A stretch of DNA of 64,000 nucleotides from a phage. Numbering within the stretch: the first letter of the stretch is position 1; each line of letters starts with the position of its first letter. Under the pieces are notes generated by a model that was not told the origin of the DNA, searched no databases, and saw only the letters and a list, made by a program, of their open reading frames with translations. Shown here piece after piece: positions 780 to 62,404 of the stretch. Location of the stretch: assembly GCA_019326865.1 (NCBI GenBank), contig GCA_019326865.1_4101.1; one strand, 5' to 3'. Position numbers and translations under genes: made by a program.

Positions 780-809
780 ATCGGGACATCTGGTCCCGAT
801 ATTTTTTTT
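780..809 (+). terminator. rho-independent terminator
   Basis: Hairpin ATCGGGAC/GTCCCGAT followed by T9 run. Confidence 0.6.
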
Positions 810-871
810 GAGACAGAAATAACATTGGTGATACAATGTTTTATGACAAAGAGACATGATAAGGAATTCAA

Positions 872-19809: not shown

Positions 19810-19971
19810 ATGAAAAAAACTTGGAAAATATTCACAATACCTGCTATAATGTTGTTATTGACACTTTTCACACCACAGAGTCATGTATTATCTCTTAATA
19901 TTGTGGAAATAATTCTTCTTGTAATTCACTGTGTCGTGTGTTATAATTATGTAAAAGGTGATAAAGAATGA
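19810..19971 (+). CDS. small membrane protein
   Basis: 53 aa; ATG preceded by AAGGAA; hydrophobic core. Confidence 0.4.
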   Translation: MKKTWKIFTIPAIMLLLTLFTPQSHVLSLNIVEIILLVIHCVVCYNYVKGDKE

Positions 19972-24982: not shown

Positions 24983-25273
24983 GTGATGATGATTTTTATG
25001 ACGAACGATATGGAGATGATAATGAGTGAACATAGTGCGGTGCTTAAAAAGATTTTAAAGGAAATTGATGGTGAGTTTAATGTCACAGAAGAAGAATATC
25101 AGCATTGGAAGAAAGATTTCGAACAACTAACCGAGTATGATAAAGTGTTCAATATGATTGGTGTAATTAGCCAGTACTTACTTGGTGGAGGACGTGCAAG
25201 TGCTTCAATTCTGGCATCTGCAATCATCTGCACATCACGATGGTGTGATGAAAAAAGTTTGGAAGATTTCTAA
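24983..25273 (+). CDS. hypothetical protein (start uncertain; alternative ATG near 25017)
   Basis: ORF 96 aa. Confidence 0.4.
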   Translation: MMMIFMTNDMEMIMSEHSAVLKKILKEIDGEFNVTEEEYQHWKKDFEQLTEYDKVFNMIGVISQYLLGGGRASASILASAIICTSRWCDEKSLEDF

Positions 25274-25325
25274 ATAAGATGCTATAATATATTATAGTAC
25301 CTTAACAATATAAAAAGGATTTTAT

Positions 25326-37055: not shown

Positions 37056-37067
37056 ATAATGGGACAG

Positions 37068-37078
37068 CACAAAAAGAT
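37068..37078 (+). promoter_or_regulatory. extended -10 promoter element TGTGATATAAT immediately upstream of tRNA-Arg
   Basis: TGn-TATAAT about 20 nt upstream of tRNA 5' end. Confidence 0.4.
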
Positions 37079-37098
37079 GTGATATAATTATTAGTACT

Positions 37099-44351: not shown

Positions 44352-44717
44352 ATGATGAGCTTTATAACATTTACAATTATTTGTTGTATCACTATTATAA
44401 TTTGTCGTCTAATTCATGTATACTCATATCACAAAGCGTTGAGAATTGAGCAAGAGATTTATATTGAAAATCAACCAAAGAAAAAACCACCATCGCCTTA
44501 TGGATTGAAGCGTGAGATGCACTCTAAAAGTAAAGAGTGGGGGTATGCAATCACAAAACATGGTTACATTTATACAGCGAGTAATGGTTATTTTCAAATT
44601 CACCACAATTTAGATGTAGCTGTTAAGATTTTGTGGGAGATGGAGGATATTGGTGGTTATGAGCGTACTGAGTTTGAATTCATATCAAATGATACAGGAA
44701 CTTCACCAGAAGCATGA
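44352..44717 (+). CDS. membrane-anchored protein
   Basis: 121 aa; N-terminal TM helix. Confidence 0.5.
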   Translation: MMSFITFTIICCITIIICRLIHVYSYHKALRIEQEIYIENQPKKKPPSPYGLKREMHSKSKEWGYAITKHGYIYTASNGYFQIHHNLDVAVKILWEMEDIGGYERTEFEFISNDTGTSPEA

Positions 44718-44833
44718 TATAATTATTGAAGGAAGTATACCGTATGTTAGAAGACTTCCAATTAAAAGCATTTATAATGAAGTTCTGTACAGATGAACAT
44801 CTTACTGGACGAGTAATACGTAAGGAGTTGTAA

Positions 44834-45175
44834 ATGAACTTAAGTTCGACAATTCAGTTCTTGAGTAATAATTTCGAGAAAATAATTTCTCGCGGTGGAA
44901 TGATTGTACATCCAGACACAGATGAAATGTACATCATTGGGTTTGATAAAAATTCTTATGATCAAGTACTTGTAATTTCAAAGTTAGAACGTTATAATGA
45001 AGTGGTTCAGTTTTGTTGTACCGAATTTGGTATATACATCAAAGATGCTGAAACCAACACTATTTCACATTATTTTTACCATACGCTGATGGGTACTAAA
45101 GATTTTGGCTTGAAGTTTGATGATTTAGTACAATGTCATTATATGTTTAAAACCTTTCCTGCTAGTGGATACTAA
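44834..45175 (+). CDS. hypothetical protein
   Basis: ORF 113 aa. Confidence 0.5.
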   Translation: MNLSSTIQFLSNNFEKIISRGGMIVHPDTDEMYIIGFDKNSYDQVLVISKLERYNEVVQFCCTEFGIYIKDAETNTISHYFYHTLMGTKDFGLKFDDLVQCHYMFKTFPASGY

Positions 45176-45974
45176 GGAGTATTTCAATATGAACAACATT
45201 TTCTTCAAAACTATTTCTTTCAAAAAATCATCTTATTCTTACGCATATGTTGATGGCAAAGTACTCAATATTGTTCTTGATGGCGTTGATGTACCAGTTC
45301 AATTCAACTCATACGAAGAAGCAATTGATGGAGCAAAAGAATTGAATTCAATTCTTAATGGGGAAGTAAGTCTAAAACAAAATGTAAAATCCGATTTAGA
45401 TGTACTTTTGAAAAAAATTAAAAGTGGGGAAGTTCTGGAAATTTTAGAAAATTGCAATGAAAAACTATCTAATGTAGTAAATGATGTCCGTGAACATATT
45501 CAAGAAAAAGCACTAGACCAAGCATTTAAACATGTATCAAAAAAAGCTGAATCTCGAATCGATGGGATGGTTAAAAATATTGATGATGTTCTATCCCATC
45601 TCTTTACTAAAGAATACGAACAGGCCGCAGAAGAGCCAAAAGAAGAAGCAAAAAAAGAAAAACGTAGTTTTGGGTCCGGTGATGATGTGTTTGGTTTCAC
45701 TAATGTACGAACAAGTTCAGATGAACCAAAGGAAATCAGTGAAATGCTTATTGGTGATATGACAACTACACAGCTTCGTAAAGAAATTGATAAGTTTGTT
45801 ACTACATCAGTACAATCAGAACGTGCACAAAATATGTTTAAAAGCATTAGTGATAATTTTGGACCAGAAGCAACTGAACAAGCACTAACTGCATTTAAAG
45901 AATTGATTTATAATGTAGCTATTCGCAATCCAGAAAAAACGCTTGAAGAAGTTCTGCGTGATAATTTCAAATAA
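45165..45974 (+). CDS. hypothetical protein
   Basis: ORF 269 aa. Confidence 0.55.
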   Translation: MDTKEYFNMNNIFFKTISFKKSSYSYAYVDGKVLNIVLDGVDVPVQFNSYEEAIDGAKELNSILNGEVSLKQNVKSDLDVLLKKIKSGEVLEILENCNEKLSNVVNDVREHIQEKALDQAFKHVSKKAESRIDGMVKNIDDVLSHLFTKEYEQAAEEPKEEAKKEKRSFGSGDDVFGFTNVRTSSDEPKEISEMLIGDMTTTQLRKEIDKFVTTSVQSERAQNMFKSISDNFGPEATEQALTAFKELIYNVAIRNPEKTLEEVLRDNFK

Positions 45975-45987
45975 TTAGATAAAATTA

Positions 45988-46018
45988 AAGCCACTACAGT
46001 GTAGTGGCTTTTTTATTA
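45988..46018 (+). terminator. rho-independent terminator
   Basis: AAGCCACTAC agtg TAGTGGCTT followed by TTTTATT. Confidence 0.65.
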
Positions 46019-46240
46019 TTCGTTGTAACCAACAAATACAGGAGAAATAATATTATCTATATCACAAACGATAATACTAGATCCACTAAACTTATATCTT
46101 CCCCCGATATAATTGTTCTTGACATTTATTACACAATTGGTATAATTATTATAACATATTTATTAGGTATAACAAAAAAATGCTTGACTAGTGCATGACA
46201 AAATGCTACTATATAGCGAATGAATAAATGAGGTGTTTTT

Positions 46241-46825
46241 ATGAATGTTATTGACGATAGATTAGTGCTGAAAAATGGAAAAATGACAGTTAAGTTATAC
46301 AAAGATGAAGCTGATTCATTTATGGCAAAAGCTATTGAGAAATCAGAGAGATATAAACTACTAGCACCTGCAAGTAGATCTCCCTACGGTTTTAATCATG
46401 CACATAGTCATTTTGTTGGTATGGTGTGTGAACATGCATCTTTAGTTCTTTTTAATGAAATTGAAAATAATACCGGTATTAAACTTAACATCGATGCTGC
46501 ATTTCAGAATGAAGCACGTGATGGTGAATGTGATATTAAAGTAAACAATCTTCGCATAGAAGTTAAAGGTATTAAGTATAAATCTTGGACGGACTTTGGT
46601 CCATGTGTTAGTACTCGACAACTAAAAAATATTCAGAAAAAAGCTGACGTGATCCTATGGGTGTTGTATAATGAGAAAAAACAAGAGTTCACGTTTGAGG
46701 GATTTAACTATGTAAAAGATATTAGTTCTATCCCAGTTATTCTAACTGGTGTTCCTGGGCGACCTATGATTGAAAATCACCCAGTGCTAAGTATTATGAA
46801 ACCACTACAGGAGTTACCGTTATGA
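46241..46825 (+). CDS. hypothetical protein, possible PD-(D/E)xK-like nuclease
   Basis: 194 aa; segment NIDAAF..DGECDIKVNNLRIEVKG compatible with D...(D/E)xK core. Confidence 0.35.
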   Translation: MNVIDDRLVLKNGKMTVKLYKDEADSFMAKAIEKSERYKLLAPASRSPYGFNHAHSHFVGMVCEHASLVLFNEIENNTGIKLNIDAAFQNEARDGECDIKVNNLRIEVKGIKYKSWTDFGPCVSTRQLKNIQKKADVILWVLYNEKKQEFTFEGFNYVKDISSIPVILTGVPGRPMIENHPVLSIMKPLQELPL

Positions 46826-47049
46826 TTAATGCAAATGTATATCAAGATATTAATGAAGAATTTAATTCTAAAATTGCTTTTTTGTCATTTCCAGTACTAC
46901 CCGAAATTGGTTCATCTTTAAATTTAAAAATTTGTGGGTTTGAAAAATATTATGAAGTAATAGATATTGAGTACTGTGCTGATGTTTATTCATGTAATAG
47001 TGAATTTGCCATTCCGGTATCAATCGATATTATCGTAAAAGAGGTTTAA
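46822..47049 (+). CDS. hypothetical small protein
   Basis: ORF 75 aa, ATGA overlap. Confidence 0.45.
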   Translation: MINANVYQDINEEFNSKIAFLSFPVLPEIGSSLNLKICGFEKYYEVIDIEYCADVYSCNSEFAIPVSIDIIVKEV

Positions 47050-47052
47050 AAT

Positions 47053-47508
47053 ATGTTTAAAAATTTTATTGTTATTGTAGCAGTACTGTTTGGTGCATCA
47101 TGTTTTATTTCCCCTGTACATGCAGAAGAACAACGACAAACAATTAAAACAATCGGTACTGGTAAAACTCCACCTAAACGTACTGCTGAAGAATATATGC
47201 CTGAGATGCGTGAACGTTATCGCCAGACATATAGGGAAAAACATGCAAATGATAAACCAATCAAGAAACACAAATGGGAAGTCGTTAAATCACCTTCATT
47301 TTGTGCTGGATATGCTAAAGTAAAAGTTGAGCAACACAAAAACCAGTACTACAAAGATATGTATTATTTCTATAACTCCAGAATCTCAGACACTGATATG
47401 ATGGCAGGGAAAGTTAACAAAGAAGAGTTTCTTCAAGGTTATGATATGATGGATGATGATAAGATTATGGAATGTGTGGAAGTATATGAGAAATACAGAG
47501 GGTTCTAA
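47053..47508 (+). CDS. secreted protein (N-terminal signal peptide)
   Basis: 151 aa; signal-like MFKNFIVIVAVLFGASCFISPVHA then charged mature region. Confidence 0.5.
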   Translation: MFKNFIVIVAVLFGASCFISPVHAEEQRQTIKTIGTGKTPPKRTAEEYMPEMRERYRQTYREKHANDKPIKKHKWEVVKSPSFCAGYAKVKVEQHKNQYYKDMYYFYNSRISDTDMMAGKVNKEEFLQGYDMMDDDKIMECVEVYEKYRGF

Positions 47509-47978
47509 TGCTAACAATGGTATTATTATCAAGCCCGTTTGCTTATTTTATTCTGTATAATATTTTTAGTAATGCTCATCATTTTAAATACGCACAAACA
47601 ATTGCAAAACATGAAGGATTTTGGAATTTTTTTCCAGCGTTATTATGTTCCTATCAATATCATGAACGCTATTTTATATTTCCAGAATATCAAAACTATG
47701 CATATGATTCTAAAGTAAATGCATTGATTGAGTACTGCATAAGAAACTATTTGAATAATAGTAATGATAATGTTCAGATACTAATAGGAAATGGTAGGAT
47801 TCCAAGAATAGTTTTTATATCTGATATACAAGACCCGATTTACTTATATCTATATGAATATAGTATCAAGGCTGGTGGTCCTATGCACGGAAGTAGATCC
47901 ATGTATGATTACTTCATATTGCCACCAACGCATATCAGGCTAATAGAAAAATACTTAAAAAATATTGACAAAAAATGA
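47508..47978 (+). CDS. hypothetical protein
   Basis: ORF 156 aa. Confidence 0.5.
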   Translation: MLTMVLLSSPFAYFILYNIFSNAHHFKYAQTIAKHEGFWNFFPALLCSYQYHERYFIFPEYQNYAYDSKVNALIEYCIRNYLNNSNDNVQILIGNGRIPRIVFISDIQDPIYLYLYEYSIKAGGPMHGSRSMYDYFILPPTHIRLIEKYLKNIDKK

Positions 47979-47994
47979 TTAGTAGTATTATAAT
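47965..47994 (+). promoter_or_regulatory. sigma70-like promoter (TTGACA-18-TATAAT)
   Basis: Consensus hexamers upstream of ORF 48027. Confidence 0.45.
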
Positions 47995-48026
47995 CATAAT
48001 ACCATCTAACCAAAGAGGAATGGAAA

Positions 48027-48485
48027 ATGGACGTATTAGCTACCAACTTCAAACGTAATACTGAAGAACGTGAAGGATATCTTAGTATTAATGATGTAGT
48101 TGCCGACAATTTTAAACAATACATTTTTAATAGTGCAATTAAATTAAAATGCACAAAAGATGCACCTGACCGTAGTTTTACTAAATGGATTGCATACTGG
48201 GAAGATTCCCCTATTGCAATTGAAATGACAGTCATTACTACTGTTCTTGAAACTGGTTACATTAAAGCAATTGTAGTTGATAAAAAAGTTCACACACTAG
48301 ATGAAATTAATCCATATCCAGCACGAAACTCTAAAGTTTTTGGTGTATTAGTTGATGGTAAATTTATGATAGAAAAAGATGCAAAGGAATATGTAATTAA
48401 CAAACTTCAATCTACGGCAGAAAAAAAAGAAGTGGTGGACCAAAACTCAGTTGATGCAATTAAAAAAGCATGGGGATTGAACTAA
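48027..48485 (+). CDS. hypothetical protein
   Basis: ORF 152 aa. Confidence 0.5.
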   Translation: MDVLATNFKRNTEEREGYLSINDVVADNFKQYIFNSAIKLKCTKDAPDRSFTKWIAYWEDSPIAIEMTVITTVLETGYIKAIVVDKKVHTLDEINPYPARNSKVFGVLVDGKFMIEKDAKEYVINKLQSTAEKKEVVDQNSVDAIKKAWGLN

Positions 48486-48486
48486 T

Positions 48487-48906
48487 ATGTTCACACTAAG
48501 TAATACAAAATATCTTTTTCTTATTAGTATTATTGGTTGGGTTATGGCTCCAGTGCTAAATGCACTGGGGTTTCCAGATGAACACAAACTTGTCATCGTT
48601 TCAGGCGTAATTCAGGGTATTTCATGGTATACATTGATTATATTTTCAGTGTGCATCAATACATTTGCCCGTGATTATCGACGTTTTTTATATCTGAAAG
48701 TATTTGGAACTACACGATACAGTTTTGTTTATACTTTTATTTTAGTACCGTGCATGTTATATGCATTTGTATTTGATTACTATACATACCTATGGGTATG
48801 TGGAACTATGTTTGTCATGTTGGAATATATCAGAACAGTGCAAAATTCATATGCTGACGAGTATTATGATTTAGAAGTTAAACGACAATTAACGGAGATA
48901 AACTAA
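48487..48906 (+). CDS. integral membrane protein
   Basis: 139 aa; about 4 hydrophobic helices. Confidence 0.5.
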   Translation: MFTLSNTKYLFLISIIGWVMAPVLNALGFPDEHKLVIVSGVIQGISWYTLIIFSVCINTFARDYRRFLYLKVFGTTRYSFVYTFILVPCMLYAFVFDYYTYLWVCGTMFVMLEYIRTVQNSYADEYYDLEVKRQLTEIN

Positions 48907-49331
48907 TGAGAGCGTATAATAAGATTTGTATTTTTGTATTTTTAGTTTGTGCATTCAATTCATTTGGATACTACTGCATCGAAAACAACATTTCATATGG
49001 TTTAAATCCGTTATGGTTTTCAATTGCCAATGTAGTACAAATAAGTATTGCTGTTTTAGCCGCACTTATGTTCTGTCCAATTGTCACAATAGATAGTGAA
49101 TATGAAAAGCTTGGATTTCTACGTGATACGGGAGATGAACCTTACAATAAATGGTTAGTATTGTATCCATTTTTAATGATGCTAGGTATTAATATTCAAT
49201 TAGGTGCAACAACCAATAGTATTACATCAGCAGCCATTGCTGTATTTGCATTCACATTTTTAACGATTCACCGCTCAATATGTCATTGGCACATTACAAA
49301 AATGGCAGAGGAAGGTACTCAAAATACTTGA
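48906..49331 (+). CDS. integral membrane protein
   Basis: 141 aa; about 4 hydrophobic helices. Confidence 0.5.
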   Translation: MRAYNKICIFVFLVCAFNSFGYYCIENNISYGLNPLWFSIANVVQISIAVLAALMFCPIVTIDSEYEKLGFLRDTGDEPYNKWLVLYPFLMMLGINIQLGATTNSITSAAIAVFAFTFLTIHRSICHWHITKMAEEGTQNT

Positions 49332-49355
49332 CATAATTTAGTATTTTATATATAA
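49327..49355 (+). promoter_or_regulatory. sigma70-like promoter (TTGACA-17-TATAAT)
   Basis: Consensus hexamers upstream of ORF 49390. Confidence 0.5.
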
Positions 49356-49389
49356 TTATTTCATAAAAAGAAATTTGAGTGAGGAACTT

Positions 49390-49641
49390 ATGAACATTGA
49401 TAAGGTCAAAGAAATTAGTGCAGCACTAATTAAAAATGAAGAAGTTTGTGAAGAACTTCGCAGTACTATCAAAGTTGAGTACGCGAGATTGCAAGGTATG
49501 CTTCAAGAATCTGAATGGGTAGTAACTAAATCTATCGAAGCAATCTATAAGGATATCGAATCCCTTTTCAACAAGAAAAGTAAGATTGAATCTGATTCAT
49601 ACAATAAGCGTAAAGAATTAAATTCAGCACTCGGTATTTAA
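49390..49641 (+). CDS. hypothetical small protein
   Basis: Start ATG 49390 after GAGGAA; 83 aa. Confidence 0.45.
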   Translation: MNIDKVKEISAALIKNEEVCEELRSTIKVEYARLQGMLQESEWVVTKSIEAIYKDIESLFNKKSKIESDSYNKRKELNSALGI

Positions 49642-49648
49642 AATTCAT

Positions 49649-49676
49649 TTGACATAATAAAAACATGGAGTACAAT
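49649..49676 (+). promoter_or_regulatory. sigma70-like promoter (TTGACA-16-TACAAT)
   Basis: Upstream of ORF 49715. Confidence 0.4.
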
Positions 49677-49714
49677 GTACTCCTAATTTAATTATAAGAT
49701 AAAAGGAAATCATT

Positions 49715-49975
49715 GTGAAATCTATTCTTGTAGCAGTTAATCTTATTGCTTCCCCATCTTTTAACTTCAAAAAAGTTGTTGCTGATAATCTGAAGAAGAT
49801 CTGTCCAAACGCTGAATTGACTTTTTGTGTGTTTGATTCAGAAAAAGTAACTAAAGTTGATTTGAACTATATTTTGAACGATGTACAAGGTATTTCCGGT
49901 GAAAACAACTTAAAAGTTCTTCGTGAGATTGCAGACGATTATGATGACACTTTAGTAATTTCGGAGAAAATCTAA
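49715..49975 (+). CDS. hypothetical small protein (GTG start)
   Basis: ORF 86 aa; AAGGAA upstream. Confidence 0.4.
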   Translation: MKSILVAVNLIASPSFNFKKVVADNLKKICPNAELTFCVFDSEKVTKVDLNYILNDVQGISGENNLKVLREIADDYDDTLVISEKI

Positions 49976-49980
49976 ATCAA

Positions 49981-50400
49981 ATGATTAGATTCATTCAGTA
50001 CTTAATCATTAATTTTTTTGGCTATCATACGATTGAAGGAAAAGCTACACTTGCACATAAAATTTTTGTAGCATTATGTACAGGTGATTATGACGTATTG
50101 AATAAGTACTGTAAATCTCAAGCATGTATTGATATAATGGCACTTCGTATCTATGAGTGCCAGTTCTTTAGATACAATTTTTACCAGTACAGATTTGATA
50201 AACAAGAATTTGATAGTTTTGAAATGTTAAAAAATTTATGCAACAATAAAAAGAATATGCATATATCAGAATTTGTTGCTTTGTATTTTTATTTAAAAAG
50301 TTCATTGTTTATGAATACGAGTCAACTTTTTGATACTAGATTTAATGTATTCAAAGGTAAAGAATTTGACATATATGATAAATTCTTAGATAAGGTGTAA
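49981..50400 (+). CDS. hypothetical protein
   Basis: ORF 139 aa. Confidence 0.5.
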   Translation: MIRFIQYLIINFFGYHTIEGKATLAHKIFVALCTGDYDVLNKYCKSQACIDIMALRIYECQFFRYNFYQYRFDKQEFDSFEMLKNLCNNKKNMHISEFVALYFYLKSSLFMNTSQLFDTRFNVFKGKEFDIYDKFLDKV

Positions 50401-50401
50401 T

Positions 50402-50899
50402 ATGACAACTGTTTATATTGATAAACGATTAAATTTGTTGATTACCGATTCTAGAGTTACATTAACTATACCACGAAACTTATTTGGTCTTTTCCCACTA
50501 AGACCAAAATATCAATATGGAATTGTTAATCAAAAAACTTTGTATGTACATGATCGTTTATTCAGTGCTAGTGGTTCGGTAAGTGAAATTGATAAAGTAC
50601 TTAATTGGTTGATTAACAAAGTACCAATTATCCCTGACAGAAAATTAAGTTGTCATTGTATTCTACTTTCCAAAGATTATATCATTCATTTGATTTTATC
50701 TAATGGTGAGTTTACAAAAAAACTTGAGTATCTACATAAAGACTACACATTCTTTATGGGAAGTGGTGGGGAATACATGGTAGATGCAGCTATTCATGAA
50801 GAGTATACAACTTTATATGATAAAGTACTTAGAACTTTTATGGATGTGCATAATCATGATTGTTTCACCGATGATAATATTAATGTATATCGTTTTTGA
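50402..50899 (+). CDS. hypothetical protein
   Basis: ORF 165 aa. Confidence 0.5.
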   Translation: MTTVYIDKRLNLLITDSRVTLTIPRNLFGLFPLRPKYQYGIVNQKTLYVHDRLFSASGSVSEIDKVLNWLINKVPIIPDRKLSCHCILLSKDYIIHLILSNGEFTKKLEYLHKDYTFFMGSGGEYMVDAAIHEEYTTLYDKVLRTFMDVHNHDCFTDDNINVYRF

Positions 50900-50920
50900 T
50901 TTTTTCATTAGGAGACGTAA

Positions 50921-51874
50921 TTGAAAAAACTAGATTTGAATGCAATTGCAGATGAAGTACTGGATGAATGTTTTTCTAGTGAAGAAGTCAATACACTTGA
51001 TGCATTAGATTCAGTTCAAGATGAAGATAAAGTTCAAAGTAATTTCAAGTTTAATATTAGTCTTAAGCGTCCACATAATGTAACAAATGAAGATCTAATT
51101 CGTGATATTCAAGCTGGAATCAATGTAAAGAAAAACACTGAACTATTAGTTCGTTATAATTATGGACTAATTGTTGATGTTGCAAGTAAATGCACATGTT
51201 ATATCCCATTTGAAGATAAGATATCATATGGTATTGAGGGATTCATGCGAGCACTAAAAACATTTGATCTTAGTAAGAATGTCAAGTTCGTTACATACGC
51301 ATCTTCCAGCATTTATATGACAGTATACAATGAAAGTTCAGATGCCAATCATCTGGTACATTTTCCCCGCTATATGAGTGTTAATAAGATCCAAGTTAAA
51401 CGCTTTTGTCATGAATACGAGCGTAAGCACGGTTGTCGTCCAACACCTGAACAAATTTCAGAGGGAACGGGAATTGAAATTCAACATGTAAAGAATTGTT
51501 TGTTATTCCAAAGTGAATATACGGCATTGGATGCACCATTGGATGGTGTTTCGGATGGTACGTTAAGTGATATTCTTCATACATCTGCTTGCGATTATAA
51601 TCTTAGTGTTGATAGTATTCGTGCACCGTTGCGTTATGTCATTAATGATCTAACACATGAATTGAGTACAAAAGAACGTGAAATTATCCAGCGTGTTCAT
51701 GGTTTAGGTGAATTTAATCCTGAATCACTACGTGAAATTGCTGATAGTGGGTTTGTTGATGACAATGGTAAATGTGTTAAATCAAGATCATCTGTGCACC
51801 GTAAATATAGTGAAGCTATAAAAAAGCTTAAGAAATTAGTACTTGAAAAAGGGTACGAATACGAAGATTTCTAA
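50921..51874 (+). CDS. sigma70-family RNA polymerase sigma factor-like protein (TTG start)
   Basis: 317 aa; region 2.2-like GIEGFMRALKTFDLSKNVKFVTYASSSI, region 2.3/2.4-like HLVHFPRYMSVNKIQ..GCRPTPEQISE, region 4-like EREIIQRVHGLGE..SLREIAD...KSRSSVHRKYSEAIKKLKK; AGGAG before TTG. Confidence 0.6.
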   Translation: MKKLDLNAIADEVLDECFSSEEVNTLDALDSVQDEDKVQSNFKFNISLKRPHNVTNEDLIRDIQAGINVKKNTELLVRYNYGLIVDVASKCTCYIPFEDKISYGIEGFMRALKTFDLSKNVKFVTYASSSIYMTVYNESSDANHLVHFPRYMSVNKIQVKRFCHEYERKHGCRPTPEQISEGTGIEIQHVKNCLLFQSEYTALDAPLDGVSDGTLSDILHTSACDYNLSVDSIRAPLRYVINDLTHELSTKEREIIQRVHGLGEFNPESLREIADSGFVDDNGKCVKSRSSVHRKYSEAIKKLKKLVLEKGYEYEDF

Positions 51875-51881
51875 AGAACAA

Positions 51882-51910
51882 GGGTTGACTTAGGTCAGCC
51901 CTTTTTTTAT
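51882..51910 (+). terminator. rho-independent terminator (GGGTTGAC ttag GTCAGCCC + T7)
   Basis: Member of 3-copy terminator family (also 60001, 62796). Confidence 0.7.
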
Positions 51911-51959
51911 GGGACAAATTATAAAGTTATGATATACTTATTGTGTACAATTTTGTTGA

Positions 51960-52440
51960 ATGCAGAAATGCATATAAATTAGAACCTGATCCTATCGAAA
52001 ATGTAGATGGCAGATGAGCAGTTCAACAATGCGATGAGCAAAAGAAACCCGTTAGATGTGGGCATAGTTTGAACCCCTCACGGCAATGCGGCTCAATAAA
52101 GAACCATGTTAGGATAGATAATGGTTCCTTGATAGACATATAAGGATAACACCTTACGAATTATCTAAGGGAGAGTTATCAAATTTTGTACAGGAAAGTT
52201 GCGTCCAAAATTTGAGTACTCACATTAAGTATTTGATTGCATAGATACTTAATGAAGATACACTATGTTTAAAAGTGTAGACCGTCATATGAAACTGAAG
52301 TAGAGAGAAACAGGATGACCCGCTTTCGCACTCACTATGAGTAATCTTCAATGCAATAGCACTGATACCATCAGCGTCAAATTTCCCTCCGCAGTGGGGG
52401 GAAGAAAAATCACCTCCTCAAATCCCGTCAATATTAAAAG
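51960..52440 (+). other. ORF-free, hairpin-rich region: candidate structured non-coding RNA or cis-regulatory element
   Basis: No ORF >=60 aa on either strand; several nested/serial inverted repeats (AACCAT..ATGGTT; GATAAC[CCTTA..TAAGG]GTTATC; CATTAAGT..ACTTAATG; ACACT..AGTGT; CTGAT..ATCAG). Confidence 0.3.
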
Positions 52441-52443
52441 TCC

Positions 52444-52472
52444 TTGACAGTTATTAATCATTCGCGTAGAAT
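52444..52472 (+). promoter_or_regulatory. sigma70-like promoter (TTGACA-17-TAGAAT)
   Basis: Upstream of ORF 52537. Confidence 0.5.
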
Positions 52473-52536
52473 ACGTAGTATTAGAAGCGAACAGACATCT
52501 CGAAGAGATGGATGATTAACTATTGAGGAATATCCA

Positions 52537-52746
52537 ATGAATTCAGTAATCTTTTTAGTAGTCGCTCTTTCAATTCAATCCGGTGTACAAATTACCCCAA
52601 TGAACTCAATGAACCAATGTTTTTCAGTGCGTGACAGTACTTATGAACAAGTAAACCACATGTCACTTATGACAGTTAGTAAAGAAAGTATGTGGTGTTA
52701 CAATAGTAATACTAACACAAAGCTTATTGTAGGACAAAATCAATGA
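52537..52746 (+). CDS. small protein with signal-peptide-like N-terminus
   Basis: 69 aa; MNSVIFLVVALSIQSGVQ. Confidence 0.45.
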   Translation: MNSVIFLVVALSIQSGVQITPMNSMNQCFSVRDSTYEQVNHMSLMTVSKESMWCYNSNTNTKLIVGQNQ

Positions 52747-52973
52747 GTTATGGTGTTCGTTTTGAGATTCGTTCTATTATTATCAATGACGAGAAACAAG
52801 CATCGTTGGATGGAGATATACGAGAAAAATATCTATCATGTATCCGTGCAAAATCTGAAGCAGATGCATTAGCACAAATGTATAGTTTTAACTTTTTTCA
52901 TGGATACCATTTGGTACGAGTTATCGAAGTTACAAAAATAATTATAGATTGTAGCATGGAAGGATTAATGTAA
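52743..52973 (+). CDS. hypothetical small protein
   Basis: ORF 76 aa, ATGA overlap. Confidence 0.45.
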   Translation: MSYGVRFEIRSIIINDEKQASLDGDIREKYLSCIRAKSEADALAQMYSFNFFHGYHLVRVIEVTKIIIDCSMEGLM

Positions 52974-52974
52974 A

Positions 52975-53763
52975 ATGAGCACTATAGATGAACTGATTCG
53001 ACGGAATTCAAAATACTACAAACCATCAGAAATTGTAGGTAACATTACCAAATCAGAGTTTGGTCCAAATACTCGAAAACTAATTCATGTAATGTCACGT
53101 GATGGCTTTAAATGTGATTGTTGTGGTGCATCCAATGTGGTATTCACTTTGCATAAGCACAGTTCTAAAGACCGTTATAAATTCAGACCTTATGTACTTA
53201 AAGGGAAACGCCTTGTACGCATGACGTTAGACCATAATGTACTGGACTGTCTTCAGGGTGGTAATGATAAAGAGAACATGACTGCATTATGTGAAGATTG
53301 TAACGCATTACGCCAACATAAGTTTGCTGAGTACAGTGAGTTTAAACACTGGTATCATAATGCGGATCGTTCAATCGAGCCGAACGTTAACTACTGCTTC
53401 ATTGAGTACATTAAGAATGCTAAAGATACACATATTCTTAAATCTATGGAACCAATTACCGTGTTTCCAATGAACCTATTCACTACATTAAAGAATAGTT
53501 TTATGGTAGGTGATATTGATGCATTCAAGTATTTTGACAAAGGTGCAAAACATTTTGAAGTTCAATGTCTTAGTACTGCACTATGTGAACTTATTAAAAT
53601 TTACATAAAAGATTATTTGGGTATTGACAATGTACGCGTACCAGAGTATACTTTTTCTATTGATTTCGATTGTGAATCAATCAAAGAGTTTGGGATTCTT
53701 TTCAATAAACAAATAGAACTTGCAATTCAAAACGAAATCAAGTACTATAATACTAACATTTAA
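52975..53763 (+). CDS. HNH endonuclease
   Basis: 262 aa; CDCCG..(H)..TLDHNVLDCLQGGNDKENMTALCEDCNALRQH (HNH core with Cys pairs). Confidence 0.7.
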   Translation: MSTIDELIRRNSKYYKPSEIVGNITKSEFGPNTRKLIHVMSRDGFKCDCCGASNVVFTLHKHSSKDRYKFRPYVLKGKRLVRMTLDHNVLDCLQGGNDKENMTALCEDCNALRQHKFAEYSEFKHWYHNADRSIEPNVNYCFIEYIKNAKDTHILKSMEPITVFPMNLFTTLKNSFMVGDIDAFKYFDKGAKHFEVQCLSTALCELIKIYIKDYLGIDNVRVPEYTFSIDFDCESIKEFGILFNKQIELAIQNEIKYYNTNI

Positions 53764-53778
53764 TCAGAGGAAATTATT

Positions 53779-53961
53779 ATGCAAATCATCATTCTTATCG
53801 TAGGTATCATTCTTGGTGTATATGGTCACTCCTGGATGAACGAGAAGTTCCCTAATACCCGTCCTGAGTATTGCAGCACTAATGTATTTCAGAATGGTGA
53901 GAAACCAAAGGAAAGTATTGGTAAAAAGCTGGACAAAGTACTTGACGTAATCAATGAATAA
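53779..53961 (+). CDS. small membrane protein
   Basis: 60 aa; N-terminal hydrophobic helix. Confidence 0.4.
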   Translation: MQIIILIVGIILGVYGHSWMNEKFPNTRPEYCSTNVFQNGEKPKESIGKKLDKVLDVINE

Positions 53962-53970
53962 GGGTAAAGT

Positions 53971-54171
53971 ATGTTTAAATCAAATACCAATGTTGGTAAG
54001 AAGGTTCAATTACTTGAGGATGTATCCACCTTGAGTGGAATTTTCCCAAGAGGTCACATCATGACTATTATTGCCGAAACATACCGTGGGTGGGATTTGG
54101 AAGATGCTGATGGTAATCGCATCCTTGAGGCTGGATTCTATGGTCATCGTGAATATAAAATCATTGATTGA
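53971..54171 (+). CDS. hypothetical small protein
   Basis: ORF 66 aa. Confidence 0.45.
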   Translation: MFKSNTNVGKKVQLLEDVSTLSGIFPRGHIMTIIAETYRGWDLEDADGNRILEAGFYGHREYKIID

Positions 54172-54265
54172 GGATGCAAACGTGACTTTAGAGATTGTCT
54201 TTGGTATTGTTAGCTTAGTCGTCTGTGTGGGTTGGTTTGGATATATGATGATATTTGGTGACTAA
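54140..54265 (+). CDS. possible small hydrophobic peptide (41 aa)
   Basis: Internal ATG of ORF 54071..54265; hydrophobic C-terminus. Confidence 0.25.
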   Translation: MVIVNIKSLIEDANVTLEIVFGIVSLVVCVGWFGYMMIFGD

Positions 54266-54268
54266 TAC

Positions 54269-54296
54269 TTGACATAAGATATCAGTACTGTATAAT
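54269..54296 (+). promoter_or_regulatory. sigma70-like promoter (TTGACA-16-TATAAT) with ATCAGTACTG in spacer
   Basis: Same family as tRNA-region promoters. Confidence 0.5.
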
Positions 54297-54389
54297 GTTT
54301 ATATCAAAGGGAATGCAGTGAAAGGAAAGACAACATAATCGTACTCGTCACTGCGTTCCCACTCTTTTAAATTAATTAAGGAATTAACT

Positions 54390-54698
54390 ATGTTTCAAAC
54401 TAACACTCAAGGTTTTGTAATCATTGATTTGAATCAAAACAGCGGTAATTGGATGAAACCTACTGACGCATGTATGCAGTTTGATTTCTTAGGTTACAGA
54501 ATTAGTGTAAGTACTGGTGCTTCTGTACTGAGGGGTGGTTGTATCGTTGAACATCTGGTAACTGATCCAGAAGGTCGTGAGTATGAAATCGCAGGTTCAG
54601 TACAAGATGCCATTATGTTTGTATGTCAGCGTGAAATGAATGGTTCGAATTCAAATGCACTGACTCATGCTCTTTCTCAAGAAGTGGAGGTTCGTTAA
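54390..54698 (+). CDS. hypothetical protein
   Basis: ORF 102 aa. Confidence 0.5.
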   Translation: MFQTNTQGFVIIDLNQNSGNWMKPTDACMQFDFLGYRISVSTGASVLRGGCIVEHLVTDPEGREYEIAGSVQDAIMFVCQREMNGSNSNALTHALSQEVEVR

Positions 54699-54949
54699 TG
54701 AAATACATTGTAGCAGTACTCGTCGCATTTTTACTCACTGCATGTGATGCTTCAACCAAAGAACGCACAAGTGATTTTGAACTCCCTACTGAATTAAAAG
54801 AAGCAGGATGTAAGATTTATCGTATGCAACAGGAAGGTGCTGGTGCAACGTTGTATACAGTTTATTGTCCTAATGCAAACACCAGTACTGGATACACTAG
54901 CGGAAAAACACGAATCAACACTTCAGTGATTAATGGAGTACAACAATGA
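54698..54949 (+). CDS. putative lipoprotein
   Basis: 83 aa; signal + lipobox LLTAC. Confidence 0.5.
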   Translation: MKYIVAVLVAFLLTACDASTKERTSDFELPTELKEAGCKIYRMQQEGAGATLYTVYCPNANTSTGYTSGKTRINTSVINGVQQ

Positions 54950-55314
54950 GCCTTGATACAACCCGTGCAACAGATTTATTCACTCGTCTGAATGATGAAG
55001 AATATCTTGCTGAAATAAAGTACAAGCTTGAAAAACTGGCTCGAAGTGCTGAAGTAATTGAAGTTAAAGGTCATTTACCAATGGATCAATTCCATACGTT
55101 CAAAGAAGATATGGTTTATTATCCAAATGAAATTTGGATTGAGTGGGAACATTGGACTAACAAAACTCTACGCATTGAAGGTTATTGTGTGAATTATGAA
55201 TCTGAACCTGGTGATGTTACAAAAACTCTCTCCATTTGGTGTACAAAAACACATGAACTAGTTGAGGTGAATTTGAATTATATGAAAGGTTTCCGTTGGG
55301 GTGATATTCAATGA
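54946..55314 (+). CDS. hypothetical protein
   Basis: ORF 122 aa. Confidence 0.5.
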   Translation: MSLDTTRATDLFTRLNDEEYLAEIKYKLEKLARSAEVIEVKGHLPMDQFHTFKEDMVYYPNEIWIEWEHWTNKTLRIEGYCVNYESEPGDVTKTLSIWCTKTHELVEVNLNYMKGFRWGDIQ

Positions 55315-55586
55315 TTAAAAAACTATTGACAGTTGTCTTTGTATTCTGTACAATGTTTCTTACAGCATGTAATGATGACGGCAGGTTTAGTGCAAAAGAC
55401 TTAGTTCGTCAGGATTGTACATTCACAGGTAAGTCTTTTATTAACGAGTATGAGGTATGTACACAACCAGGCCGTATCTGTGGTGCTTGGGAAAAACGAC
55501 AGGAGCGATTGTATGTATATGAATGCCCTGGACATCTCAACAAAGTAATAAGTACTCACAAACTTGTTTATGATAAGGTTGAATAA
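55311..55586 (+). CDS. putative lipoprotein
   Basis: 91 aa; signal + lipobox FLTAC. Confidence 0.5.
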   Translation: MIKKLLTVVFVFCTMFLTACNDDGRFSAKDLVRQDCTFTGKSFINEYEVCTQPGRICGAWEKRQERLYVYECPGHLNKVISTHKLVYDKVE

Positions 55587-55801
55587 TGACTACAAATGAA
55601 ATGATGCAGGTTATTTGGGATAAAGGTTGTGATATTAAAATCACTAGTACTGATGTTCGTGTGTTCAAAACTGAATACCTAGAGTACTTGGACCTTGATA
55701 CTTATAATAATATTGTAGCAATTGAACACAAAGGTGCAGTACTTGAAACTATTGATGTAGTTCTGAAGAAAGCAACAGACCTATTAGGTTCGTCAGTGTG
55801 A
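55586..55801 (+). CDS. hypothetical small protein
   Basis: ORF 71 aa. Confidence 0.45.
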   Translation: MTTNEMMQVIWDKGCDIKITSTDVRVFKTEYLEYLDLDTYNNIVAIEHKGAVLETIDVVLKKATDLLGSSV

Positions 55802-55941
55802 ATAATAAAGAGTGGGAAGAATACCGAAAAAAATGCCGAGAGTTTGATAAAGAACTCACAGGTACAGTGAACGCGGTAATGTGGGTATCTGCAATTATTG
55901 CAGTACTTGGTTTGGGTGCTATTATTAATAAATTATTCTAA
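55798..55941 (+). CDS. possible small membrane protein (47 aa, GTG start)
   Basis: C-terminal hydrophobic helix; below ORF-track cutoff. Confidence 0.3.
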   Translation: MNNKEWEEYRKKCREFDKELTGTVNAVMWVSAIIAVLGLGAIINKLF

Positions 55942-55949
55942 GGACTAAT

Positions 55950-56150
55950 ATGTTTACTTTATATCTTGCAGTAGCACTAACTAATGGTGAAATCACTCGC
56001 ACCGTTGGTGAAGGTGTATATAATACACCTGAGCAGTGTTACTCTGCGACTCATTGGCCTAGTGATGCTGGTGATAACACTCGCACTGAATACAAATGTA
56101 TGAAGGTTAAAGGTGACTTTGTAAATCTAAAGATTATTGAGACTAAGTAA
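55950..56150 (+). CDS. hypothetical small protein
   Basis: ORF 66 aa. Confidence 0.45.
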   Translation: MFTLYLAVALTNGEITRTVGEGVYNTPEQCYSATHWPSDAGDNTRTEYKCMKVKGDFVNLKIIETK

Positions 56151-56668
56151 TGGATATTAATGAGTTGTTGAACTTATTGTTTAATCGTGAACTCCGCGAT
56201 ACAAGAACAATTGAATATCAAGATGTGATACGTATTGAAACTGATTTTTGTTATGGTAAAACAACTCATGATCTTTTGAATCCATCTGGAAAACGCTATG
56301 CTGATGTTTGTTTTTCTGAAAGAAGTGATGGTTCAGAAATAACAAGTACTGAAATTGTGTTTTATGATAGATCCTCGGCTGGTTCGTATGAAATAGAACT
56401 TATATATTGTCCTTGTTCAGAAACACACAATAAACGTCAGATATTATATGATGTTTATTCACCTCCAGGTATTGCTGAATATTTTGTTATTGATTACAGT
56501 ACTGAAGAAAGTGTGTTTCAACAGAGCTTGATTTATAACTTCCAGTTGAATGATCCATTAGTACCGAAGATTTTCAAACTACTTGACACAATCGATGTTG
56601 AATTTGAATTTGTTATGTGCATTAGAACTTCCTTATTCAATGAATTTGTGGAACTTTTTAATATATGA
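56150..56668 (+). CDS. EExFFQ-motif family protein
   Basis: 172 aa; TEESVFQQSLIYNF. Confidence 0.55.
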   Translation: MDINELLNLLFNRELRDTRTIEYQDVIRIETDFCYGKTTHDLLNPSGKRYADVCFSERSDGSEITSTEIVFYDRSSAGSYEIELIYCPCSETHNKRQILYDVYSPPGIAEYFVIDYSTEESVFQQSLIYNFQLNDPLVPKIFKLLDTIDVEFEFVMCIRTSLFNEFVELFNI

Positions 56669-56886
56669 ATAGATACTATGTTGTGTATGAACACGTTTCT
56701 GAATTTAATAACATACGAGGTTATTCCAGAGTTGTCACAAAGATGGATGTATTCATACGTGCTCTTAGTGAAGTAGAGGCACTGTTTAAATTGTTTGATG
56801 AAATTACAAAGTATAACACACTCAAAACACACCGCTATGTGGAAACTGTACATAGCATTATGCTAACTGAAAGTGAGGAGGAATGA
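56665..56886 (+). CDS. hypothetical small protein
   Basis: ORF 73 aa. Confidence 0.45.
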   Translation: MNRYYVVYEHVSEFNNIRGYSRVVTKMDVFIRALSEVEALFKLFDEITKYNTLKTHRYVETVHSIMLTESEEE

Positions 56887-56889
56887 TAA

Positions 56890-57108
56890 ATGAATTTATA
56901 TCTTGTTGAAGGATTGGTACAAGTCTATAAACCTGAAGGTGAAGGGCAACGTTTTTTGTATGTAGAAGATTTTAAGTATGTTGTAAAGGCATCTTGTCAA
57001 AGCGATGTTGAAATTCAAGTTCGAGAATCATTTCGTAATAAGAATGCAATTGGAAAATTCAAATATCAGCACTTACAATTCAAAGTATGGCCTAGCTTAA
57101 ATGACTAA
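56890..57108 (+). CDS. hypothetical small protein
   Basis: ORF 72 aa. Confidence 0.45.
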   Translation: MNLYLVEGLVQVYKPEGEGQRFLYVEDFKYVVKASCQSDVEIQVRESFRNKNAIGKFKYQHLQFKVWPSLND

Positions 57109-57316
57109 GATGTGGTGGTGTCATGGTGTCTATAACGTGTATGTAAATGGTCAATATAAAATGTCTAGTACCTATGCTAGACGTGTCCATGCGAACAATA
57201 AAGTTGATGCTGCATGTGAGATTATTGAGTGGTATGCTGAGTTCAATACATTTGATTATATGTACGAAATAGTTACAATAAATGTTGTACAAATTGACAC
57301 GTCTCTGATACAATAA
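57101..57316 (+). CDS. hypothetical small protein
   Basis: ORF 71 aa. Confidence 0.45.
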   Translation: MTKMWWCHGVYNVYVNGQYKMSSTYARRVHANNKVDAACEIIEWYAEFNTFDYMYEIVTINVVQIDTSLIQ

Positions 57317-57347
57317 CTACATCAAAAAAACTGCAACTGAGGATACT

Positions 57348-58010
57348 ATGTTAGTAAATCTTAATTTCATCACTTCTCCTGATTGGGCATTACGTGGTGT
57401 TTCTTTGAACTTTAAAGAAACTAATTTCGACTACATTGGGGATTGTACTTTAGTTAATGCTACATTTGATCCTCATCATCCTTTTTGGGCTAAGATTCAT
57501 GATCCTAATGTAAACAATAGTGTATCTGTTATGACTATTGTACAGACGAAATATCCTGGCATTCTCGCAGGTGACCATCCTAAAGTTGCAATTAATCATT
57601 TCACTGATTATGATGTAGTAGATGAGTATCCAATGATTCATGAAGATGGAAGTTTATACACATCTGAAGACGTTCGTGCTATCTTTAATAGTACTGATGA
57701 TATTCTACCAAGTGGACGAGCACGTCCTAAGTCTTATCTTATGCATTCATCTTATGGTGTAGCAGATACGCTTGAGCAGATTATGAAGAAGTACAAGAAC
57801 CTAATTGAAGGTCCAGAAGAAGTTGTCATGTGCTATCATCCAGTACTGAAGTCTGAGCAACCAAAGGATGGTGGTTGGCGTTGGCATAAGAATGGTGATT
57901 ATATCGGTACGAAACGAAGTAAAGAACGTTTTGAGTACTTGTATGATGAGCCAGATGTTGATGTGGTTTTGTGTTATAATTTTATTAAGGTGAAAAAGAA
58001 ATGTATCTAG
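57348..58010 (+). CDS. hypothetical protein
   Basis: ORF 220 aa. Confidence 0.55.
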   Translation: MLVNLNFITSPDWALRGVSLNFKETNFDYIGDCTLVNATFDPHHPFWAKIHDPNVNNSVSVMTIVQTKYPGILAGDHPKVAINHFTDYDVVDEYPMIHEDGSLYTSEDVRAIFNSTDDILPSGRARPKSYLMHSSYGVADTLEQIMKKYKNLIEGPEEVVMCYHPVLKSEQPKDGGWRWHKNGDYIGTKRSKERFEYLYDEPDVDVVLCYNFIKVKKKCI

Positions 58011-58243
58011 TACTAAGTTTTGTTGTTGCACTATTGTTTATGTTTTACCCTACACTGGTAGCACTAGCTACAAGACGAACAGTTGGCGATATCACAACAG
58101 TATTCTTGTTAAACGTGGTTCTGGCACTAGTGTCTATTATAATCCCAGTAAACCCCAATGTTATTGACATGGTAACAGTATTTCTCTTTGTATTCAGTTA
58201 TCTTATTCTTATCGATGAAAAACCTGTTGACAAACAATCTTAG
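58001..58243 (+). CDS. small membrane protein
   Basis: 80 aa; two hydrophobic helices. Confidence 0.45.
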   Translation: MYLVLSFVVALLFMFYPTLVALATRRTVGDITTVFLLNVVLALVSIIIPVNPNVIDMVTVFLFVFSYLILIDEKPVDKQS

Positions 58244-58254
58244 TGCTGTATAAT
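58227..58254 (+). promoter_or_regulatory. sigma70-like promoter (TTGACA-16-TATAAT)
   Basis: Spacer contains TAGTGCTG; overlaps 3' end of ORF 58001. Confidence 0.45.
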
Positions 58255-58295
58255 AGTTCTTGAAATGTAAAAACTTAAATATGAGGGTATAAAAT

Positions 58296-58616
58296 ATGTT
58301 ATCAGTATTGTTTTCAATTCCATCTTTAATTCTAATTTGGATTATTGTGTATGAATGTTTTATTGTAGATGATACGGAGAAAAAAGAATTCAATGAGTTA
58401 TTCATGCTTGATACGCCAGTTGTCCGCATTTTCTATTCTGTAGTTATCGTTTCAGTACTTGCATGGATTGTAAGTTTTATCTTTCCAATGGGTATGATCA
58501 TTAATGTGTTGAATTTGGTTGAAAACACTATTGCTATTCTATGGCTAATTAAAGCGTGGTATTCAGGAAATGTTAATATTTGGATTGATATTATTAAATC
58601 TAAATTTACAAAATAA
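58296..58616 (+). CDS. integral membrane protein
   Basis: 106 aa; 3 hydrophobic helices. Confidence 0.5.
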   Translation: MLSVLFSIPSLILIWIIVYECFIVDDTEKKEFNELFMLDTPVVRIFYSVVIVSVLAWIVSFIFPMGMIINVLNLVENTIAILWLIKAWYSGNVNIWIDIIKSKFTK

Positions 58617-62290: not shown

Positions 62291-62404
62291 TTTAACTTTG
62301 GGACAAACTTTTCTATAATGATATAATTTCCTTGTCAGATTATTTAAATGACATGTTGAAGTATAAATATTATTGTAACGTTATCTCTTATAGGAGTTAT
62401 AAAA

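Follow-up and report, generated by a model that had tools for sequence, protein, structure and literature searches.

In the jumbo phage CBB, a protein with sigma regions 2, 3 and 4 (CBB_513) is encoded in the early region, and three classes of promoter were described for the same genome, together with CBB_244, a late sigma of the gp55-like kind (PMC5259590). The supplement of that paper gives "Promoter 1" as TGAAACG or TGGAATG, followed by N13 and TGNTATAAT, and the motif that we call class 2 below was also reported for CBB and GAP32 (PMC5259590). Orthology among the jumbo-phage sigmas and their earlier annotation are covered by three comparative papers (PMC5259590, PMC7824862 and PMC11895373). 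The searchable literature yielded no experimental study of this sigma family, and no demonstration of the promoters its members read or of the mode of reading. Among other phages, SPO1 gp28 and phiEco32 gp36 are middle-gene sigmas that redirect the host core enzyme, both smaller and group 3/4-like. T4 gp55 is also a phage protein of the sigma-70 superfamily acting on the host core, an activity predicted for the protein studied here, but gp55 is a minimal factor with sigma2 only that serves TATAAATA late promoters, whereas our open reading frame (ORF) has sigma3 and sigma4 domains as well and is a different gene.

The window, the whole stretch of 64,000 nucleotides that we analysed, shares 97.7% identity with Escherichia phage UE-S1; 121Q, PBECO4, phAPEC6, Sharanji and others follow at about 88%. 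These phages all belong to Asteriusvirus and have genomes of about 350 kb. The window is therefore an Asteriusvirus, a jumbo phage of the RaK2/121Q-like kind, and not the T4-type phage suggested by an earlier reading made from the sequence alone. T4-like replication genes, namely those for topoisomerase II subunits and a clamp loader, are present in the window. The gene of interest and its translation signal are as follows.

50910..50914, + strand: ribosome-binding site AGGAG, 6 nt 5' of the TTG, with the same site annotated in UE-S1
50921..51874, + strand: gene for a sigma-70-family RNA polymerase sigma factor of 317 aa, with a TTG start and a TAA stop at 51872-51874

The ORF is thus as the sequence-only reading described it, and its start codon is supported both by the N-terminus MKKLDLN, invariant across the 14 homologues aligned, and by the identical coding sequence annotated in UE-S1. 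A tblastn search recovered the sigma in 87 phage records, and the majority of those with annotation call it a sigma factor. Identity falls from 98.4% (UES1_148 of UE-S1, five residues different) through 84% (121Q gp167), 60% (the Ecwhy_1/WPEC5 group) and 42% (RaK2 and K64-1) to 33-37% in GAP32, CBB, Serratia phage BF, Yersinia phage fHe-Yen9 and Xanthomonas phage XaC1. The annotated RaK2-like sigmas (UES1_148, 121Q gp167, CBB_513 and those of PBECO4, RaK2, K64-1, GAP32 and Serratia BF) are orthologues of our ORF, 98% to 33% identical over the full length. All of them, our ORF included, have lost the Trp-Trp pair and gained an insertion in region 4.2. The marks of this RaK2-like jumbo-phage clade, a subset of PHROG 351, were all found in the ORF: full-length similarity, SS, TT or AA in place of Trp-Trp, the pattern G-[FY]-x-D-x-x-G-[KR] in region 4.2, and a location in the early region. 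We saw no difference of substance from the known members, and the ORF represents one more allele. The gene is thus already known, from the annotation of dozens of GenBank records as well as from comparative papers; since RaK2/121Q-type jumbo phages all carry this described sigma, the finding is an ordinary one. Nor is a full-length sigma exceptional among phages in general: a Foldseek search against predicted viral structures returned many other phage sigma factors, some of them in cyanophages. As first stated, then, the sigma gene adds nothing new, and what interest it has lies in its mechanism, given a region 2.3 without Trp-Trp and a region 4.2 interrupted by extra residues.

Profile searches, proposed in the sequence-only reading as a check, place the protein firmly in the sigma-70 family. 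Pfam Sigma70_r3 matched aa 158-222 (E 2.3e-10; 40.9 bits against a cut-off of 25.3), Sigma70_r2 (PF04542) matched aa 76-137 (E 2.2e-5; 24.6 bits against 24), and the NCBIfam model of the sigma-70 superfamily, TIGR02937, passed its cut-off over aa 76-305 (47.2 bits against 42.9). Region 4 (PF04545) fell short, at E 0.027 and 14.4 bits against 24.1, and the match covered the first half alone (aa 247-275); we attribute this weak score to an 8-aa insertion that splits the helix-turn-helix. The Pfam models of regions 1.1 and 1.2 (PF03979 and PF00140) did not match the 317-aa protein. Beyond Pfam, the ORF matched PHROG 351, "RNA polymerase sigma factor", at 1.1e-53, and a phmmer search against the PDB returned sigma factors only (RpoD, SigA, SigB and RpoS, 1e-14 to 1e-10). 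None of the equivalog or group 3 models tried reached its cut-off: 79 bits against 354 for RpoD (TIGR02393), 68.7 against 378.7 for RpoS (TIGR02394), 55.6 against 189.6 for FliA/WhiG (TIGR02479) and 54 against 234 for SigB/F/G (TIGR02980). The ORF encodes a genuine if divergent member of the sigma-70 family, almost certainly orthologous to the sigma annotated in other jumbo phages. It represents the "complete" sigma conserved among RaK2/121Q-type (group 2) jumbo phages, and the protein probably works as a sigma on the host core polymerase.

Alignments and an AlphaFold model built from a 14-sequence alignment (mean pLDDT 67.9, pTM 0.35) divide the protein into the following parts.

50921..51058, + strand: N-terminal tail (aa 1-46), acidic and predicted to be disordered, pLDDT < 50
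51068..51340, + strand: sigma2 domain (aa ~50-140; remnant of region 1.2 and regions 2.1-2.4), from Pfam r2, alignments and pLDDT 72-86
51350..51586, + strand: sigma3 domain (aa ~144-222; regions 3.0 and 3.1), from Pfam Sigma70_r3, with helices at 144-170, 176-183 and 187-195
51629..51850, + strand: sigma4 domain (aa ~237-310; regions 4.1 and 4.2), from the weak Pfam r4 match, pLDDT 78-91 and alignment with cellular RpoD-like proteins
51749..51778, + strand: insertion peculiar to the family, G277-V286 (GFVDDNGKCV), separating the two helices of the helix-turn-helix in region 4.2, seen as an 8-aa gap against cellular sigmas

The confident blocks of the model are aa 50-140 (sigma2), 160-195 (sigma3) and 240-310 (sigma4). 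Structural comparison also supported a sigma factor, with Foldseek aligning the model to sigmaS and SigA chains over 260-285 columns (E ~1e-10 to 1e-8); the low TM-scores reflect a domain arrangement that is not the same in the free model as in chains bound in holoenzyme. The sigma2-sigma3-sigma4 order is shared with RpoD, RpoS and SigA, which are the best profile and structure matches. Unlike them, the phage sigma (25-27% identical) has no region 1.1 and no non-conserved region, its region 1.2 is cut down to "ISLKRP", and it has an 8-aa hairpin in the helix-turn-helix of region 4.2 and S/S at W433/W434. The "complete" factor of the sequence-only reading is thus complete in its three domains but not in region 1. 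That reading had correctly located regions 2.2/2.3 and 4.2, but the segment FPRYMSVNKIQ..GCRPTPEQISEGTGI, which it assigned to region 2.3/2.4, belongs to region 3.0/3.1 (sigma70 452 onward, Pfam r3). The first 18 residues (MKKLDLNAIADEVLDECF) are highly conserved, with K2, L4, D5, L6, I9, L14 and F18 invariant.

We then compared individual residues by aligning the protein to E. coli sigma70 and four cellular RpoD-like proteins, region 2 aligning to sigma70 374-453. The numbering and roles of sigma70 residues follow the established sigma70 literature. Equivalents of F419, F427, Y430, P453 and R584 are kept in the phage sigma, and E420 is present as Asp. The Trp-Trp pair of region 2.3 (W433/W434) corresponds to S129/S130, and homologue alignments showed this pair in no member of the family, CBB_513 included. 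Further replacements are Y/M/Y at R436/Q437/T440, Y151/V154 at H455/E458, and S/H/R at the region 4.2 positions E585/R588/Q589. The core-binding segment of region 2.2 has S and Y at the equivalents of Q406 and E407, and binding of the core polymerase by the phage sigma is for this reason assumed here. Both helices of region 4.2 are present in the alignment with cellular sigmas and in the model, with the 8-aa insertion between them. The insertion is modelled as a beta-hairpin (strands 277-278 and 284-285, pLDDT ~88); G277, D280 and G283 in it are invariant, and in the most distant homologue it is 10 aa long. The DNA-facing elements vary between genera: region 2.4 reads IYMT in Asteriusvirus and IRQH in CBB, with the Arg-Gln of "IRQ" retained in more distant family members, and the recognition helix reads SRSSVHRKY in Asteriusvirus and SKATLSRRY in CBB.

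The surroundings of the gene point to early expression. Its operon includes the following features.

49328..49356, + strand: host sigma-70-type early promoter TTGACA-17-TATAAT at the operon head, 12/12 consensus
49375..50899, + strand: four tightly packed, co-oriented ORFs (88, 86, 139 and 165 aa) upstream of the sigma gene, from the ORF list
49649..49676, + strand: second sigma-70-type promoter TTGACA-16-TACAAT, inside the sigma operon, 11/12 consensus
51880..51903, + strand: intrinsic terminator closing the operon, a 10-bp stem with a T-run, with a terminator also annotated in UE-S1

The sigma gene is the last in an operon headed by near-perfect host sigma-70 promoters. A scan of positions 44001-64000 listed no terminator-like site between 49715 and 50921, and the terminator at the end of the operon is one of three related units in the window. 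The four upstream ORFs had no Pfam match and fall in PHROGs of unknown function, with no transcription partner identified among them; the 165-aa product weakly matched the HslV-family peptidases. Because host-type promoters head this operon and an intrinsic terminator ends it, we predict that the sigma is an early gene transcribed by the unmodified host holoenzyme. CBB is similar in this respect, its sigma gene lying in the early region 3' of an RpoD-like promoter (Porf_510). Promoters of this kind abound in the window: the pattern TTGAC[AT]-N16-18-TAnAnT was found at 28 places on the + strand and at a single one on the - strand (2.06 expected), and the perfect TTGACA-N16-18-TATAAT nine times on the + strand and never on the - strand (0.1 expected). 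The sequence-only reading had proposed that a full sigma factor implies a distinct promoter class, which might explain the conserved promoter repeats. The conspicuous repeats are host sigma-70 consensus promoters, the type that drives the sigma operon itself, and do not require the phage sigma; a distinct, non-host class does exist in the window, as described next.

This class 2 combines TGRRAC at the -35 position with the extended -10 element TGnTATAAT, and after the CBB supplement we relaxed the pattern to TGRRANN-N13-TGNTAYAAT. Its sites in the window are listed below.

809..837, + strand: TGAGACA-N13-TGATACAAT, preceding the gene for the large subunit of topoisomerase II (872), a candidate target of the phage sigma
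7560..7588, + strand: TGAAATG-N13-TGATATAAT, upstream of the ORF at 7637
19822..19850, + strand: promoter-like site TGGAAAA-N13-TGCTATAAT
25260..25288, + strand: TGGAAGA-N13-TGCTATAAT, preceding the gene for a cytosine methyltransferase with an intein (25326)
37060..37088, + strand: TGGGACA-N13-TGATATAAT, immediately 5' of a tRNA gene (37099)
51910..51938, + strand: class-2-like promoter TGGGACA-N13-TGATATACT, just 3' of the sigma terminator and predicted to drive a structured RNA
62299..62327, + strand: TGGGACA-N13-TGATATAAT, upstream of the ORF at 62405

A search for TG[AG][AG]ANN-N12-14-TGNTA[TC]A[AG]T across the window found six sites on the + strand, all with 13-nt spacing, and one on the - strand, with 0.33 expected. 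With a relaxed -10 pattern the counts rose to seven and three, respectively, against a null of 1.4, the seventh + strand site being that at 51910. The plain extended -10, TGNTAYAAT, is uninformative because it is not strand-biased (26 versus 19). The TGRRAC element can be placed at -35 because it starts 23 nt before the -10 hexamer, the same distance as TTGACA with a 17-nt spacer. The class-2 -10 is identical in Asteriusvirus and CBB, and the -35 alone varies slightly; the strict CBB-type TGAAACG with its -10 had no convincing gene-proximal site in the window. In the Asteriusvirus SD-6_S16, TGGGACA-N13-TGCTATAAT precedes the gp55-like gene, and the same arrangement is found in CBB (Porf_244). 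The window showed no over-represented class of promoter-like sites beyond the early promoters, class 2 and TATAAATA.

The last of these motifs concerns late transcription. A T4-late-like TATAAATA motif precedes the virion protein gene at 4340. The full sigma does not replace gp55: the relatives WPEC5 and SD-6_S16, which bear the same sigma, also encode a separate gp55-like late sigma, the C-terminal half of which matches cyanophage gp55. CBB_244 itself had no match in the window; its orthologues are present in Asteriusvirus genomes, in a gene distinct from the sigma. A query 100% identical to T4 AsiA detected no homologue in the window, nor any among the jumbo-phage records of about 350 kb that were listed.

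Taken together, these observations suggest a cascade. Host sigma-70 would transcribe the early genes, the phage sigma among them; the phage sigma, made by the host sigma-70 holoenzyme, would bind the host core RNA polymerase and send it to class-2 (middle) promoters, which serve replication genes, tRNAs, the RNA family described below and the gp55-like gene; and the gp55-like sigma would then read the T4-late-like TATAAATA promoters. The different -35 element may be accounted for by the altered region 4.2, with its S, H and R at E585, R588 and Q589 and its 8-aa hairpin. We infer the link between the sigma and class 2 from the expected order of expression, the placing of the new element at the canonical -35, the changes in region 4.2, and the fact that no AsiA was detected in the window or among the listed records. 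As a target for the phage sigma, class 2 is the strongest candidate, and we give this assignment an even chance. The fuller proposal is tentative, and we hold it to be slightly below an even chance: a dedicated middle sigma in a three-sigma cascade, which would recognise TGRRAC through its hairpin-split region 4.2, open promoters without a Trp-Trp wedge, and control replication genes, tRNAs, the late sigma gene and the ~450-nt RNAs. By analogy, it would resemble SPO1 gp28 and phiEco32 gp36, in that an early sigma supplied by the host holoenzyme would switch the polymerase to the next temporal class; the SPO1 sigma cascade is summarised in PMC13401047. The conserved class-2 set, which includes the late-sigma gene, makes the specificity of the sigma simple to probe in vitro.

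The strongest competing explanation accepts a functional sigma but has class 2 read by host sigma-70 with the help of an activator or appropriator from the phage, much as T4 uses MotA/AsiA; the phage sigma would in that case act at some other promoter set, or replace a limiting or inactivated host sigma. Host sigma-70 with such a partner could read class 2, because its -10 is the textbook host extended -10, perfect in TGnTATAAT, whereas the residues with which sigma70 reads the -12T and the TG motif are replaced in the phage sigma (Q437 to M, T440 to Y, H455 to Y and E458 to V). Region 2.4, moreover, varies between phage genera while the -10 stays constant. Against this, the upstream element lies exactly at -35, 23 nt from the -10 hexamer, which fits sigma4 on the flap rather than a site of the MotA-box type. 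No AsiA homologue turned up in the window or among the listed jumbo-sized records, and the window showed no further over-represented class beyond early, class 2 and TATAAATA. On balance, we regard this explanation as unlikely, but as one to be taken seriously.

A sigma-like decoy, which would occupy the core or compete with host sigmas to shut off the host and would not direct initiation, appears improbable. The loss of the Trp-Trp pair that group 1 sigmas need for melting would suit a decoy, as would the several substitutions in regions 2.2 and 2.4 and the interrupted helix-turn-helix of region 4.2. However, alternative sigmas of groups 3 and 4 initiate without this pair. The pocket for -11A is conserved in homologues 33-99% identical (F115, D116, F123 and Y126, corresponding to sigma70 F419, E420, F427 and Y430), and so are R294 and Y296 of the recognition helix, together with H293 except in CBB; conservation at these positions argues for selection on DNA contacts. 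The insertion is itself conserved and confidently modelled.

That the gene is a host rpoD or rpoS copy, acquired recently as an accessory gene and still specific for host promoters, is highly improbable and effectively refuted. Its appeal lies in the top matches, which are the RpoD C-terminal (79 bits) and RpoS (69 bits) profiles and the sigmaS and SigA structures, but the profile scores are far under the equivalog cut-offs (354 and 379 bits), identity to the nearest cellular proteins found is just 25-27%, region 1.1 and Trp-Trp are missing with 1.2 reduced, and the gene occurs across phage genera, at identities as low as 33%, with insertions that its family members share. Equally remote is the notion that the sigma is this phage's equivalent of the T4 gp55 late sigma, which draws on the T4-like replication genes in the window and nothing else, and is opposed by the separate gp55-like gene of related genomes, the early-type operon of the sigma gene and the TATAAATA late-type motif in front of the virion protein gene at 4340.

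Two subjects at this locus seem worth pursuing: the promoter specificity of the atypical sigma and the RNA family that adjoins it. The 660-bp gap 3' of the sigma gene, in which the + strand has no ORF of at least 40 aa, contains one further element.

51945..52435, + strand: conserved structured non-coding RNA of ~450 nt, separate from the sigma gene, from conservation and covariation

This RNA is apparently an undescribed, multi-copy family so far restricted to these jumbo phages. Rfam gave no hit for the gap region at gathering thresholds or at E ≤ 1, and none on the element in seven orthologous RNA loci even at E ≤ 10; a literature search found no paper on it. The gap contains no tandem repeats and has no second copy in the window. 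A supposed likeness to the core of the T4 td group I intron had no support in the Rfam searches. PA5oct ncRNA002, a 451-nt RNA verified by RNA-seq, was considered as a homologue and set aside, as it shares none of the invariant motifs. We consider the RNA more interesting than the sigma. Few large structured RNAs lack a known function, and with E. coli phages among its carriers this one seems open to experiment.

Conservation of the RNA core (about 51985-52435) exceeds that of the sigma gene. Phages with a sigma protein ~60% identical to ours have a core with 93.5% nucleotide identity, and in CBB, Serratia BF and the Erwinia phages, whose sigma protein is down to 33%, the core still reaches 70-73%. 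Eight viral contigs, all of 348-378 kb, contain an invariant 32-nt core motif. Some genomes carry at least three copies: the motif gives three in 121Q and three in Serratia BF, and two in CBB. Paralogues within one genome are 62-76% identical; no protein family is common to the neighbourhoods of different paralogues. A class-2 promoter lies 124-172 nt upstream of the core motif in 21 of the 23 RNA instances, a count over fetched loci of which some duplicate the same copy. RNAalifold, applied to a 19-sequence alignment, predicted 63 pairs, 37 of which keep pairing through two-sided changes. Paired cells reached 97.6%, compared with 40-49% when the partners were slid by 1-3 columns, and the covariation score was 0.473, compared with 0.07-0.11; none of 500 shuffles attained the observed values. 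The G·U pairs of this structure place the RNA on the + strand.

Directly 3′ of the gene for the phage's divergent sigma-70-family factor (50921-51874, + strand) we identified a structured non-coding RNA, listed here with the other features of the window considered below.

25326-27221, C-5 cytosine DNA methyltransferase gene with an intein inside
37099-41118, six clustered tRNA genes (each matching Rfam tRNA at 50-68 bits)
51883-51922, 60001-40 and 62798-837, three related 40-nt units, each an intrinsic terminator hairpin plus promoter
51945-52435, structured non-coding RNA of ~450 nt, with a promoter at 51910-51938
52975-53763, gene for a free-standing HNH endonuclease (PHROG 35175, E 1e-180)
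63123-63590, three direct repeats of ~48 nt each (ATATGTnnnnnnAnnGGATATACTTATAAACC...)

Covariation in the RNA was strong, with compensatory changes in 37 of 63 pairs, and paired cells in the alignment reached 97.6%, versus 40-49% in slid controls. The element is better conserved than the sigma gene itself: its nucleotide identity was 93% in phages whose sigma protein is at 60%, and 70% in those whose sigma protein is at 33%. All eight contigs carrying its core motif, an invariant 32-nt stretch, were jumbo phages of ~350 kb, and some genomes hold two to three or more copies of the RNA. A class-2 promoter (TGRRAC at the -35 position and an extended -10, TGnTATAAT), the candidate target of the phage sigma factor, precedes the RNA in 21 of 23 instances, a set in which some copies are represented more than once. 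An Rfam search with the element returned zero matches, even at E ≤ 10, and we found no paper on it in the literature searched.

The 40-nt units carry TTGACT within the terminator stem, GGTTGACTTCGGTCAGCC. In two of the units a promoter, TTGACT-N18-TATAAT or TATAGT, overlaps the terminator: the stem TTGACT, at 60003 and 62800, doubles as its -35, and the terminator's T-run falls in its spacer; in the unit 3′ of the sigma gene, a class-2 promoter comes next instead. Class-2 promoters also occur 5′ of the methyltransferase gene and, at 37060, in the tRNA cluster, where near-identical host-type promoters are scattered among the six genes (TTGACTaaatagttcagtRctgaTATAAT at 38671 and 39153).

Downstream of the RNA, and separated from it by two small ORFs, lies the HNH endonuclease gene. 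It is present in the annotations of some relatives and missing from those of others, and this patchy distribution suggests a mobile homing gene. The methyltransferase ORF matches methylases at both termini (aa 4-79 and 423-629; Pfam, PHROG), with Hint and LAGLIDADG domains in its centre (aa 77-434).

In the sigma factor, residues 1-18 (50921-50974), MKKLDLNAIADEVLDECF, are almost invariant across the phage family, are modelled with low confidence by AlphaFold, and are followed by an acidic, variable linker. They could serve for docking, or take over the function of region 1.1.

Near the window's end, the direct repeats are spaced by 204 and 216 nt. A simple ORF picker called no gene over this stretch. 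The repeats may form a repeat array or belong to protein-coding modules that recur.
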